Origin: a virus
Taxonomy: Duplodnaviria; Heunggongvirae; Uroviricota; Caudoviricetes
Virus record (IMG/VR): IMGVR_UViG_3300037424_000495
Location: 1-64,000 of that record
DNA length: 64,000 bases
Reading direction: 5' to 3' (one strand)
Part shown: positions 4,701-64,000 of the stretch, piece by piece
Numbering within the stretch: the stretch's first letter is position 1
Layout: every line of letters begins with the position of its first letter
Program-made: the position numbers and the translations under genes
The notes under the pieces: generated by a model
The model's database searches: none
Seen by the model: only the letters and a program-made list of their open reading frames with translations
Told to the model about the DNA's origin: nothing

Positions 4701-5460
4701 GAAGCAGTCTGCTAAATTCACACGAAAAGGTGCGAATGTTACAGATAAAGACTTCAAAGAATTGGAGGATGCTTACACTCGGTATACGGAATTAGTAAAA
4801 CCCTCTGCTGAGTCCAAAGAAGCTTATGAACAGTTTGTTAAGGATGCCAAATCTGTTTTGGAGCAGTCGCAGAAAGTCAAAGCCGCTAAGACGTTAGTCG
4901 ATGGTGCTCGTAGTAATGCGACCGAAGCTGGTCAACGACTTCCCGACATTGAAGCTGCAATGAAGGCTGCGAAAGAAGCTGCCGAGCAGACAAAACAGTC
5001 TACAGACGGGGCGAATCAAGGCGCACAAGTAACTAAGTCTGCACTAGGTGAAGTTGCGTCCTTAGATATGAGTGGATTAACTTCGCAAATCAGTAATGCA
5101 GCCATAGCAATGTGGGATTTAGCATCCGCGTCAATGTCGGTGCAAGCTCCATCTTACGGTGCTACAGCGCGATTCGGCGGAGAAATGCAACGGTACGCAG
5201 ACGGCGGTTCCGTGGGCACGGATGTCATACCGGCATTACTTTCGCCCGGCGAGTTTGTAATGACATCGACGGCAACACGGAAGTTTGCTTCACAGTTGTC
5301 GGCAATGAATGCCGGCATTCAACCTATCTTCCGCAATGAAGGTGGCAGCGTCACCAATATCGGTGATGTTGCGATCAATATCGATGGCAGTAAGAGTCCT
5401 GAATTAACTGGCAGGGCTGTTCATTCTGCCTTGAAAAGATTTACGCGCCGCGGCGCATAA
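1708..5460 (+). CDS. tail length tape measure protein
   Basis: 1250 aa; Ala/Gln-rich coiled-coil N-terminus; hydrophobic segment AIAAAAIPCAVALAGLAAAFALV; long helical repeats; follows two small chaperone-like genes and precedes distal tail genes. Confidence 0.85.
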   Translation: MADEVINKLGFNVDEALEALQRLDTALQGAGSAFSKFGTTLDSFNDRASAALATMRSLASAASRLSTSMQSAPASTGATATTAPATKLWLPSGVESSASQAAQAMAAVGTAAQQAGQKAAAGMNNAANATAGVKKHADSLIVSWNTIARVVMTQTIVRAMSMIRDALKDAVTTAEDFQVHLAEIRSIAPRIGADLAKGVAGAGESLKSFQIEVTEFSKRANLPLPQVTEGLYQTISDQFTSVTDRSNVMNAAMKLSKVGVMDFQDAITLLTGTLNAYGKGSAEAESSAAKFFETIRLGHVRGKELADTMGQAIPIAAELGVGLDELNAAMVTMTIGGMDAHKSVTALRGVMTAFLKPSEDMKKVMREMGFSDPAQLIAAKGFEGALKAIAEQADGMGSEIAKSVRNVRALTAELRLTSEGGAQQYEQALKAMRTATPENLEQILKEFRSTDAERLTSQINALKVNLTQDFGQAIVGVLANMMEMMGGADKMASAITAIAAAAIPCAVALAGLAAAFALVHISLGPIGIAMLALTAGLSLAVGTYTYVTMSNIANIRQEADARRQLTLQVLREEDQKIAKWKETAEAQNKTRLSSLQTDLASLRRDYFRAMDDLKVKNNEAINGARQTMESMIQAQERVIAVYRNAANAAVRAVQESQQRQKTLLADYADTRFKYAQQGLDAEQKAENYRLRALQQARVAAKELANAKSPDEIQSALAAYQRAEAQIQEAENIAKSTNNIVLQQDAERAVLTIMLQKVDAEKKLQQVQAKQAADLAKKAAAEQARTNEMKSLMPQILKDLQAFDKQGPKDDKSLAEQEARLKANVARFGQLFLGGQKVDISDLLSFDQLQRRVTVALEGGVDQVKINKFLADPGGFSDLRQQIKDGVGPVEIFIKAAVKYDPALKQELKGMTSGEAMDHIANKATQAAQRTVDFTIAEQNLDAAEKGLKNLAANAAKSLQQWAQKTGDMDIGITDAFQLLLAPDSQWSKGVKAATTEFKKQSAKFTRKGANVTDKDFKELEDAYTRYTELVKPSAESKEAYEQFVKDAKSVLEQSQKVKAAKTLVDGARSNATEAGQRLPDIEAAMKAAKEAAEQTKQSTDGANQGAQVTKSALGEVASLDMSGLTSQISNAAIAMWDLASASMSVQAPSYGATARFGGEMQRYADGGSVGTDVIPALLSPGEFVMTSTATRKFASQLSAMNAGIQPIFRNEGGSVTNIGDVAINIDGSKSPELTGRAVHSALKRFTRRGA

Positions 5461-62981: not shown

Positions 62982-63017
62982 ATTATCAACAATGAAAGGT
63001 TTGAAAGGTACGAATCA

Positions 63018-63329
63018 ATGAGCCAACTTTATGTACAAGCGATCCAACAACTTTTAGGCAATACTCGCTCAACTGACTTTACCACGTTAGTGAGTCAACT
63101 CAATGAATTGCGTAACACTTTGAAGAACAAAACCACAACATTGATGCAAGCCACCACCACCCCGGAAATGGTGATTAAATATGCACCTCGGCTTCAAGAA
63201 CTTGCAGATGAAGACGCCACAGTCCTTACAGTCCTGAACGAGCTAAGCAAACTTATCGATGCGACAGCCGAAAGAAGCTCCCGCATTTTGAAGAAGCTTA
63301 CCAAGAAACTCCCTAAGTCGAATACTTAA
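63018..63329 (+). CDS. hypothetical protein
   Basis: ORF in track. Confidence 0.4.
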   Translation: MSQLYVQAIQQLLGNTRSTDFTTLVSQLNELRNTLKNKTTTLMQATTTPEMVIKYAPRLQELADEDATVLTVLNELSKLIDATAERSSRILKKLTKKLPKSNT

Positions 63330-63406
63330 ATATGCGGCGGGCCGAAGAGAATGGGTTATCTGGTTAAGGTTTACCCCACTCTCACTAACTTGCCCGCCCA
63401 TTTATG

Positions 63407-63530
63407 AACACTGTAGCTCAGTTGGTAGAGCGCTAAAACCGCTTGCCACCACTAGCCTGAAAGGGCCGAATGGTTAAGCGTTATCCATTTCTAACGGAGA
63501 GGTCGCAGGTTCAAGTCCTGCCAGTGTTCA
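63407..63530 (+). ncRNA. tRNA-like RNA 1 (Y-RNA-like tRNA mimic candidate) with ~50-nt insertion in place of a normal anticodon arm
   Basis: 7-bp acceptor-like stem AACACTG/CAGTGTT; D-arm TAGCTCAGTTGGTAGAGC; T-arm GCAGGTTCAAGTCCTGC; ~67 nt between D- and T-arms where a tRNA has ~22. Confidence 0.55.
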
Positions 63531-63535
63531 CTATG

Positions 63536-63666
63536 TACGTCGTAGCTCAGTCTGGTAGAGCAAAAGTTAGTATGCCGCTGTCCGCTCTTTTACCCGGCAA
63601 CGGGTCGATAGGCCAGCGTTATCATTGGGAACTTTAGGTCGCAGGTTCAAATCCTGCCGACGTGCC
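63536..63666 (+). ncRNA. tRNA-like RNA 2 (Y-RNA-like tRNA mimic candidate) with ~56-nt structured insertion in the anticodon loop
   Basis: Acceptor-like stem TACGTCG/CGACGTG; D-arm TAGCTCAGTCTGGTAGAGC; anticodon-stem-like AAAGT/ACTTT enclosing a 63-nt loop with a CCCG-GCAA-CGGG hairpin; T-arm GCAGGTTCAAATCCTGC. Confidence 0.55.
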
Positions 63667-63701
63667 TTAATTTTGGGTCGAATTTTAACCCGGAGACTAC
63701 T

Positions 63702-64000
63702 ATGAATTACGCCCAGCATGTTTCATCCCGCGTTACACCGCAATCAGAGCCGATCCCTGGAAAGCCCCAAGTGGCAAACAACGGTGGCGGCTACAGTTTC
63801 ACTCTTGATTGCTGGGGCCAACTTCAACGCTTCTTAATCCTTGGCTCTGAAGGCGGCACATATTATGTGTCCGAACATAAGCTAACTATCGATAACGCCA
63901 ACTGCGTATTGGCGTGCGGCAATGCTGACTCGACCCGTGCTGTTGAGTTGATTGTATCTGTGAGTCAAGCTGGTCGAGCGCCGAAGAATGACCCTGCCAT
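63702..64000 (+). CDS. rsr: Ro60/TROVE-domain protein (Rsr-like), 3'-truncated by the window end
   Basis: [34 protein letters not shown]...[12 protein letters not shown] closely parallels the Ro60 N-terminus ([22 protein letters not shown]...EGRAAKQEPTLFALA, recalled from memory). Confidence 0.8.
   Translation, partial: [99 protein letters not shown]

Follow-up and report, generated by a model that had tools for sequence, protein, structure and literature searches.

The presence of two tandem tRNA-like elements directly upstream of a Ro60/TROVE gene in a tailed phage poses the question whether the phage encodes its own Y RNAs, and how these relate to YrlA, the class of bacterial Y RNAs that mimics tRNA. 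The locus lies at the end of a 64,000-nucleotide (nt) stretch of DNA, positions 1-64,000 of the virus record IMGVR_UViG_3300037424_000495 (the window; all coordinates are on its + strand). The original prediction had seen a candidate phage Y-RNA module here, and this is borne out: two tRNA frames carrying predicted Y helices are followed by an open reading frame (ORF) that reads as Ro60. We propose that the leader of this Ro60 operon probably encodes three Y RNAs, namely one minimal hairpin (mini-Y) and two YrlA-like tRNA mimics (elements 1 and 2) in unpermuted tRNA topology. Phage Ro60 proteins with tRNA-mimic Y RNAs have been known since 2014 (PMC4201824; also PMC12135203); what is apparently newly described is a YrlA relative with an open acceptor stem.

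Architecture of the RNAs upstream of Ro60

An ORF ending at 63329 is followed by the mini-Y, an 8-nt spacer, element 1, a 6-nt spacer, element 2 and a further 36 nt up to the ATG at 63702, all on the same strand. The original prediction had placed both elements correctly, apart from small corrections, and missed the third Y RNA, the mini-Y. The predicted features of the locus are as follows (types A and B are defined below):

63336-63398, + strand: mini-Y RNA hairpin, 63 nt
63407-63529, + strand: element 1, type A Y RNA of tRNA topology, 123 nt
63536-63665, + strand: element 2, type B Y RNA of tRNA topology, 130 nt
63666-63701, + strand: spacer and Ro60 5' untranslated region (UTR), with GGAG at 63692-63695, seven nt before the ATG
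63702-64000, + strand: first 99 codons of the Ro60/TROVE gene, cut by the end of the window

In both elements, the 5' and 3' ends pair with each other in a 7-base-pair (bp) acceptor stem, which is extended by exactly one G-1:C73 pair. Both also have U8-A9 and hold the tertiary-contact nucleotides of a class I tRNA (U8, A14, G15:C48, G18G19, U54U55C56, A58 and UUCRA). The stretch that separates the D and T arms, 23 nt in a tRNA, measures 73 nt in element 1 and 79 nt in element 2; the original prediction had put these lengths at ~67 and ~79 nt, of which the second was right and the first too low. Element 1 is composed of:

63407-63413 / 63522-63528, + strand: acceptor stem AACACUG/CAGUGUU, 7/7 pairs
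63406:63529, + strand: eighth acceptor pair, G-1:C73
63416-63431, + strand: D arm, GCUC-AGUUGGUA-GAGC
63432-63439, + strand: linker GCUAAAAC
63440-63480, + strand: Y helix of the Ro60-binding type in permuted strand order (direct reading and minimum free energy, MFE, fold)
63459-63462, + strand: GAAA cap
63465-63472, + strand: motif GCCGAAUG, which fits GNCGAAN0-1G
63467, + strand: bulged C
63481-63485, + strand: UUAUC
63483-63499, + strand: weak anticodon-like hairpin with loop UUUCUAA
63500-63504, + strand: variable loop AGGUC
63505-63521, + strand: T arm GCAGG-UUCAAGU-CCUGC

Element 2 is composed of:

63536-63542 / 63658-63664, + strand: acceptor stem UACGUCG/CGACGUG, 7/7 pairs
63535:63665, + strand: eighth acceptor pair, G-1:C73
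63545-63561, + strand: D arm, as in element 1 with one extra loop base
63563-63567 / 63631-63635, + strand: anticodon-type stem AAAGU/ACUUU
63576-63618, + strand: Y helix of the Ro60-binding type (direct reading and MFE fold)
63597-63600, + strand: GCAA cap
63606, + strand: C opposite a U, followed by G.U and A-U pairs
63619-63623, + strand: UUAUC
63636-63640, + strand: variable loop AGGUC
63641-63657, + strand: T arm GCAGG-UUCAAAU-CCUGC

The insert of element 1 reads 5'-CGCUUG(CC)ACCA-C-UA-GCCU-[GAAA]-GGGC-C-GA-A-UGGU-UAAGCG-UUAUC, with an upper stem CGCUUG(CC)ACCA / UGGUUAAGCG and a lower stem GCCU/GGGC. That of element 2 reads 5'-CGCUG-...-UU-U-ACCCG-[GCAA]-CGGGU-C-GA-...-CAGCG-UUAUC, with an upper stem CGCUG/CAGCG, a lower stem ACCCG/CGGGU, and UU and UGGGA as remnants of the anticodon loop. 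Apart from positional exceptions given below, both inserts share a lower stem, a bulged C, G.U and A-U pairs, an asymmetric internal loop, an upper stem and UUAUC with the mini-Y. The bulged-C helix that the original prediction had proposed to look for is found in both, with the C of element 2 opposite a U. In each, the strand that is normally 3' in a Y RNA comes first, and the end of the helix that would bear the termini is capped by a GNRA tetraloop. Judged from sequence and pairing, the inserts are Y-RNA helices of the Ro60-binding type that replace or extend the anticodon arm, not introns.

The inserts enter the tRNA frame at different sites, and two subtypes can be told apart. In element 1 the insertion lies between nt 26 and 27, and the anticodon position holds only a 3-bp hairpin after the 50-nt insert. 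In this subtype, A, the Y helix stands between nt 26 and a short hairpin whose 7-nt loop bears an anticodon-loop signature, with Y32 kept, U33 in 25/34, R37 in 28/34 and A38 in 23/34, and with an unconstrained triplet. Subtype B, to which element 2 belongs, retains a 5-bp anticodon stem and carries the module inside the loop, in element 2 between U33 and U34. Deletion of the module in silico was too permissive to locate insertion sites, as ARAGORN accepts a tRNA after nearly every deletion tried. Folded as a whole, the 376-nt region yields, in both the MFE and the centroid structure, the mini-Y and two separate cloverleaf-like domains with acceptor stems of 9 bp and 8 bp.

ARAGORN at default settings found no tRNA in the whole 64 kb. 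The original prediction had allowed that covariance models might score the elements as ordinary intron-less tRNAs; the Rfam tRNA model (RF00005, gathering score 29 bits) does reach 46.4 bits on element 2, but has to jump over 62 nt of the anticodon loop, where it expects 6, and matches element 1 only partially, at 20 bits. A covariance model of the elements themselves (R1), whose seed consists of 13 viral type A elements, matches element 1 (a seed member; 102.8 bits, E 1.5e-24) and element 2 (non-seed; E 7e-8). These are its only matches on either strand of the window, in which it found no other tRNA-like sequence.

The mini-Y has no tRNA-like module. It reads GGCGGGC-C-GA-A-GAGAAUGGG-UUAUC ... 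CCCACUCUC-ACUAAC-UU-GCCCGCC, that is, a lower stem GGCGGGC/GCCCGCC, a bulged C, GA/UU, an internal loop and an upper stem GAGAAUGGG/CCCACUCUC, followed by UUAUC. Of the two Rfam models that the original prediction had suggested, Y_RNA (RF00019, 23.9 bits) aligns to the mini-Y, as does the nematode sbRNA family ceN72-3 (RF01656, 33.9 bits), in both cases end to end and below the gathering score of 38 bits; YrlA aligns below its own gathering score across the junction of the two elements. The lower stem, bulged C, CGAA, upper stem and UUAUC are common to the mini-Y, canonical Y RNAs and nematode sbRNAs, and, like Yrl1 and Yrl2 of Thermus phage phiLo (PMC12135203), the mini-Y would be a Y RNA upstream of a phage Ro60. 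It differs from canonical Y RNAs in its length of only 63 nt, its sub-gathering scores and the lack of an effector loop, and the two larger elements differ from them in carrying the same helix in inverted strand order. We predict that 63336-63398 is a Y RNA stem and part of the module.

The assignment of the downstream ORF to TROVE by the original prediction holds for the family and not for the fragment by itself. The 99 amino acids (aa) in the window score 18.5 bits against Pfam TROVE, under the cut-off of 23. Its closest full-length viral relative (68% identical, 549 aa) has both TROVE (E 3.7e-49) and vWA_Ro60 (E 8.7e-61), identity to the N-termini of 13 viral proteins is 46-68% (63-68% for the full-length Ro60 proteins of loci L074 and L001, described below), and its database relatives are named 60 kDa SS-A/Ro ribonucleoprotein or TROVE-domain protein. 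The ORF from 63702 can thus be assigned by homology as the N-terminus of Ro60. A DNA search of cultured phages with 63300-64000 gave no match, and a promoter and terminator scan of 63000-63900 gave no site beyond the level of shuffled sequence and none within the cluster of RNAs. Within the Ro60 5' UTR (63670-63700, + strand), GGGUCGAA lies in a small hairpin predicted by the whole-region fold just 5' of GGAG, perhaps as what is left of a Y half-site or as a site through which Ro60 regulates itself.

Distribution, covariation and acceptor ends

A Ro60 profile search yielded 369 viral contigs and more than 565 bacterial genome loci, and 80 of each were examined (numbered L001 onwards). A strict pattern, requiring a 7/7 acceptor, U8, a D arm with GG, a 5/5 T stem and a Y motif inside the insert, found 29 elements in 22 of the 80 viral loci; every one shares the strand of Ro60, and the opposite strand has none. 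In the bacterial loci it found 60 elements in 36/80, with 55/60 on the Ro60 strand. At E <= 1e-9, R1 gave 72 bacterial matches, 70 of them long (>100 nt) and none in the seed. Carriers include Chloroflexota, Armatimonadota and Myxococcota, among others. As far as these sequence matches tell, the architecture occurs in bacteria too and is not phage-specific. The Y motif was also searched as a loose regular expression, which is non-specific within coding sequence.

L074 is syntenic with the window in its order of mini-Y, type A, type B and Ro60, while L070 has the same A-B pair with its mini-Ys after B; in the window and in both of these loci, neighbouring RNAs are separated by 3-10 nt. Hairpins of the mini-Y type are more widespread, with about 80 or more in 49 of the 80 viral loci, and 11/14 pairs of the mini-Y family show compensatory changes in a 16-sequence alignment.

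The helices covary in each group of elements. For type B, counted on an unfitted alignment of 10 sequences, 90.9% of the alignment cells are paired, compared with 32-48% when the partners are slid, and 23 pairs are changed on both sides. Pairing is 100% in the acceptor, D and T helices, 92% in the anticodon-type stem (4/5 pairs compensatory), 90% in the Y upper stem (5/5 compensatory) and 87% in the Y lower stem, and the U.G pair beside the bulge is invariant in 10/10. A mid-helix GC/GG pair that the MFE fold proposed for type B was dropped, being non-conserved and only 26% paired. Among the non-seed bacterial matches, aligned to the model, 93.7% of cells are paired (36-53% when slid), with 99.2% in the acceptor and 8/8 compensatory pairs in the Y upper stem; in the type B and bacterial alignments together, the D and T helices are 98-100% paired. 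The type A tRNA core, in a MAFFT alignment of 13, has compensatory changes in 13/16 pairs. Because MAFFT alone mis-registered the type A Y helix, its counts come from model-fitted alignments.

The acceptor ends have further features in common. G-1:C73 is present in 21/29 viral elements versus 2/28 ordinary tRNAs of the same loci (Fisher p = 4e-7, relatedness ignored) and in 20/60 bacterial elements versus 10/131 tRNAs (p = 2e-5, relatedness ignored). This pair is a hallmark of tRNA-His, in which G-1 is retained by RNase P. In the elements it could reflect histidine identity, the choice of RNase P site or merely the stability of an 8-bp stem. CCA directly follows N73 in 8/61 viral (13%) and 7/70 bacterial elements (10%), compared with 1 in 64 (1.6%) by chance. 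In Desulfonema magnum 4be13 (NZ_CP061800.1, near 4.73 Mb; L115 1093-1619), three such chimeras lie upstream of rsr, each with N73-CCA encoded and with a U in place of the usually bulged C (GGGCUGAAG).

Neighbouring elements tend to have acceptors that could pair with each other, at 6/7 or better in 15/25 cases versus 21% by chance (p = 2e-5). Within one genome the acceptors of neighbouring chimeras are often identical or cross-pairable while the inserts differ; at L169 5123-5565 three neighbours share the acceptor GCAGACG/CGUCUGC, and a related pattern is seen in L168, L129, L157 and L179. Such sharing could mean that the elements evolve in concert, that neighbours can adopt an alternative fold with each other or that they have a partner particular to the genome.

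Relationship to YrlA and competing explanations

YrlA runs from the 5' strand of the Ro60 stem through the V region, the T arm, a closed acceptor-like hairpin and the D arm to the 3' strand of the Ro60 stem, and it 'lacks a free CCA end' (PMC4201824; structure in bioRxiv 10.1101/312249). Like the elements, it is found beside Ro60/rsr, has a GNCGAA helix followed by GUUAYC (RF02553; the Ro60-binding motif GNCGAAN0-1G was defined in PMC4201824) and has D and T arms with tRNA tertiary nucleotides. The circular order is also the same in both, namely Y 5' strand, small hairpin or loop, variable loop, T arm, acceptor, D arm and Y 3' strand, and it is the break point that differs. YrlA ends in the Ro60-binding stem and its acceptor hairpin is closed, whereas the elements have an open acceptor of 7-8 bp, a Ro60-type helix capped by a tetraloop and, in some relatives, a CCA. 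The original prediction had noted this topology, with the termini in the acceptor stem and the extra domain at the anticodon position, and both the sequences and the folds agree with it. No family in Rfam 15 matched the open-acceptor, tetraloop-capped form, and no prior description was found in the literature searched, although it may have been mentioned earlier in reviews (Sim/Wolin 2018, 2020; Boccitto/Wolin 2019).

Among the same 80 viral loci, the pattern for closed-acceptor YrlAs gave 22 candidates in 17 loci, of which ~15 in 13 are convincing by eye, and five viral loci have both forms. Ten cultured phages with Ro60 were sampled (Cashline, Sixama, Sparky, LinStu, FuzzBuster, GMA2, Pumpernickel, MindFlayer, SparkleGoddess and Atu_ph07): the unpermuted form was found in none of them, closed-acceptor YrlAs were found in 8, and Pumpernickel and Atu_ph07 had no Y motif near Ro60. 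Apparent matches to the form of the elements in these phages were rejected as artefacts of tandem classic YrlAs or as loose acceptor matches of 6/7. Gordonia phage Cashline (MW534378.1, L094 2170-2450) has two clear, unannotated closed-acceptor YrlAs upstream of its 'Ro-like RNA binding protein' gene. They share with element 1 the linker GCUAAC (GCUAA(A)AC) after the D arm, and GGUUACC plus a small hairpin before the T arm, a likeness that makes the homology of the elements and YrlA visible at the sequence level. In Mycobacterium phage LinStu (L097 2560-2930), tandem YrlA genes were recognised by eye only; they are unannotated, and one overlaps the small coding sequence gp230.

A close parallel is the YrlA of M. 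smegmatis. This RNA, with an acceptor stem of 7 bp, is a substrate of RNase P and of CCA addition in vivo, binds Rsr and is made from one precursor with YrlB. It is thus a Ro60-bound tRNA mimic with an open acceptor, a CCA tail and a second Y RNA in its precursor, as we propose for the elements. It ends up, however, as two fragments (82 + 65 nt) that stay joined by base pairing, whereas each element would be one covalent chain. In permuted RNA genes, such as red-algal tRNA genes and two-piece tmRNA, one fold likewise occurs in two gene orders. In those genes it is the permuted order that is unusual, whereas in this case YrlA, the form already known, is permuted and the elements follow the order of a tRNA. 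Viral tRNA-like structures and tRNA-His offer partial parallels, the former as non-decoding tRNA mimics with a free acceptor end and the latter in its G-1:C73; the elements differ from them in having no GUG anticodon and in being encoded by a DNA phage rather than forming the 3' end of an RNA virus. According to the model of a dimeric-tRNA origin (Sim and Wolin 2018), as it is quoted in 10.1101/312249, YrlA combines the T arm of a first and the D arm of a second tRNA, with an acceptor hairpin derived from the spacer. The model needs a tandem pair such as the window holds, 6 nt apart. It starts from ordinary tRNAs, though, and derives the Ro60 stem from left-over arms, whereas the tRNA frames in the window already carry the whole Y helix.

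Several observations weigh against reading the locus as three Y RNAs. The motif of element 2 is GUCGAU and fits GNCGAA only in part, its last base being different, and its C at 63606 lies opposite a U and is not cleanly bulged. Element 1 has an A, not the usual U, across from the G that adjoins its bulged C. With 4-5 bp and a tetraloop, the Y lower stems are shorter than those of canonical Y RNAs. Single-sequence fold z-scores are weak and uninformative (-1.4 for element 1, -1.7 for element 2), the bacterial and type A Y-helix alignments are fitted to the model, the window elements have no encoded CCA, and Ro60 is truncated by the end of the window.

A shift in register would turn the locus into an ordinary permuted YrlA that starts with the Y 5' strand and T arm of element 1, forms a closed acceptor hairpin across the 6-nt spacer and ends with the D arm and Y 3' strand of element 2. 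The mirror image of this error does occur, as R1 reports an element across two tandem YrlAs in Cashline, with the acceptor broken, and the Rfam YrlA model does match 63501-63561 (model positions 27-81). That match takes in the T arm of element 1 together with the D arm of element 2 and reaches 31 bits, less than half the gathering score of 69; we reject it as a tandem-tRNA artefact of the kind that the YrlA authors discarded as T-arm/D-arm matches (Chen et al. 2014, PMC4201824). Pairing of the 3' acceptor strand of element 1 with the 5' strand of element 2 attains 6/7 in L070 and L074 and 5/7 in the window, which is the chance level (null P = 0.47), whereas the elements' own acceptors are 7/7, covarying and 99-100% paired. 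The Y lower stems are closed by 4-nt GNRA loops and leave no room for termini, the shifted register would orphan the halves 63407-63459 and 63596-63665, the whole-region MFE picks two separate domains in the tRNA register, and relatives encode CCA after the acceptor. For these reasons the tRNA register is supported for both window elements, and the shifted one is very improbable. We hold it just as improbable that these are real tRNA genes with short introns, a possibility raised by the original prediction, in which the Y-like insert would be excised to give, for instance, a tRNA-Pro(UGG) from element 2. With its intron option ARAGORN does reconstruct from element 2 a 75-nt tRNA-Pro(UGG) with a perfect loop UU|UGGGA, taking out 56 nt between U33 and U34 as an intron; type B keeps NGG, G37, A38 and often Y1:G72, and type A loops keep U33 and R37. 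Element 1, by contrast, becomes a forced tRNA-Leu, and over 131 long elements the same option returns 46 different anticodons. Orthologues disagree as well (Pro UGG in element 2, Leu CAG in L070B, Phe AAA in L074B; UCU, GUU and GAU in type A), the insertion sites differ between type A (26/27) and type B (33/34), and type A anticodon stems have only 3-4 bp. Group I introns are much longer than these inserts of 50-56 nt, and no bulge-helix-bulge was seen at the junctions by eye. The insert is the most constrained part of the element, a covarying Y helix found only beside Ro60. The loop traits of type B may stem from ancestry: the 3' half of its anticodon loop (63624-63630 in the window; also in L028, L037, L041, L070 and L074) is kept as NGGGA (NGG, G37, A38), position 1:72 is often Y:G, and these tRNA-Pro traits, with the perfect reconstruction, suggest that type B descends from a tRNA-Pro.

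Two further explanations concern function. The tRNA frames might serve mainly as processing punctuation for RNase P and RNase Z, in the manner of mascRNA, releasing the mini-Y and the Ro60 mRNA. The 3-10-nt spacers of the window, L070 and L074, with no internal promoters or terminators seen, would suit this, and tRNA-like elements are known, according to the introduction of 10.1101/312249, to define the ends of neighbouring RNAs. Punctuation would need neither a covarying Ro60-type helix nor the elbow nucleotides, G-1:C73 or an encoded CCA, and many loci have a single element with no adjacent mini-Y. As the main role of the frames it is unlikely, although it is compatible with, and not exclusive of, their being Y RNAs. 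Still less probable is that the elements act as decoys or sensors for tRNA-targeting factors such as anticodon nucleases or repair and modification enzymes, with Ro60 as scaffold or protector. Type A hairpins do keep Y32, U33, R37 and A38 around free triplets, and in Salmonella rsr and Y RNAs reportedly belong to an RNA-repair operon induced by damaged tRNAs. Yet no RNA-repair or nuclease gene lies beside Ro60 in the window, L074 or L001, the triplets are non-conserved, and the idea is wholly inferential.

Proposed function of the Ro60 module

The sequences themselves show the architecture, its conservation and covariation, and its linkage to Ro60. On the reading that the Ro60 leader encodes three Y RNAs, we infer the following pathway. 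The RNAs would be co-transcribed with Ro60, given the spacers of 8, 6 and 36 nt and the absence of a visible promoter or terminator between them. Host RNase P would cut 5' of each tRNA frame, the same cut producing the 3' end of the mini-Y, and the 3' ends would be trimmed and receive CCA; for these maturation steps M. smegmatis YrlA provides the precedent. The expected products are RNAs of about 63-70, 124-127 and 131-134 nt; the two larger ones would have 5' ends at 63406/63407 and 63535/63536 and a non-templated CCA after 63529 and 63665. Phage Ro60 would then bind the bulged helix of each RNA. The L-shaped tRNA domain with its free acceptor end could act as a tether to a tRNA-binding effector, while the mini-Y, without an effector module, could act as a gate. 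In a Thermus phage, Y RNAs of the phage are bound by its Ro60, which also forms complexes with the PNPase of the host (PMC12135203), and by analogy with RYPER complexes the phage ribonucleoprotein may divert RNA decay or quality control in the infected host.

A more specific version holds that these are a widespread and so far undescribed class of YrlA-type RNAs in native tRNA topology whose free, CCA-bearing end would tether Ro60 to machinery dependent on a tRNA 3' end, such as the CCA-adding enzyme, an aminoacyl-tRNA synthetase, EF-Tu or the ribosome, and that they represent the ancestral state from which permuted YrlA arose via tandem pairs. We put this forward tentatively and consider it possible rather than likely. 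Among the synthetases, G-1:C73 would point to the histidyl enzyme (HisRS). Duplication and trimming could convert either form into the other.

The defining oddity of YrlA is a closed acceptor stem without CCA, and a sister form with tRNA ends widens the range of conceivable partners. It makes questions testable about the recognition of the 3' end of the tRNA domain, its charging and the origin of Y RNAs from tRNA dimers. The 2014 survey had found few YrlAs in cyanobacteria and deltaproteobacteria (PMC4201824). With the unpermuted form carried by lineages of that kind (Myxococcota, Desulfonema), and by Chloroflexota and Armatimonadota as well, this gap may be filled, and the cultured Desulfonema magnum 4be13 offers a handle for work on the form. 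For phage biology, three RNAs with Ro60 make up a compact and portable module.

The window is otherwise the genome of a tailed phage, encoding a tape measure protein, primase, helicase, DNA polymerase, ligase and methyltransferases; neither there nor in L074 or L001 was a tRNA-related gene found beside Ro60. Other viral Ro60 loci hold further tRNA-like elements. Just downstream of Ro60 in L002 are two tRNA-frame elements (4735-4861 and 4883-4987) with 60-80-nt inserts lacking a Y motif, the acceptor CCGUGGU in both and the T loops UGCAAAU and UUUGAAU. In L008, a 96-nt tRNA (2093-2188; Rfam 58 bits) with a long extra arm and the loop CCCUAAA, which ARAGORN does not call, may carry a CUA anticodon, and it adjoins an array of at least five Y RNAs.

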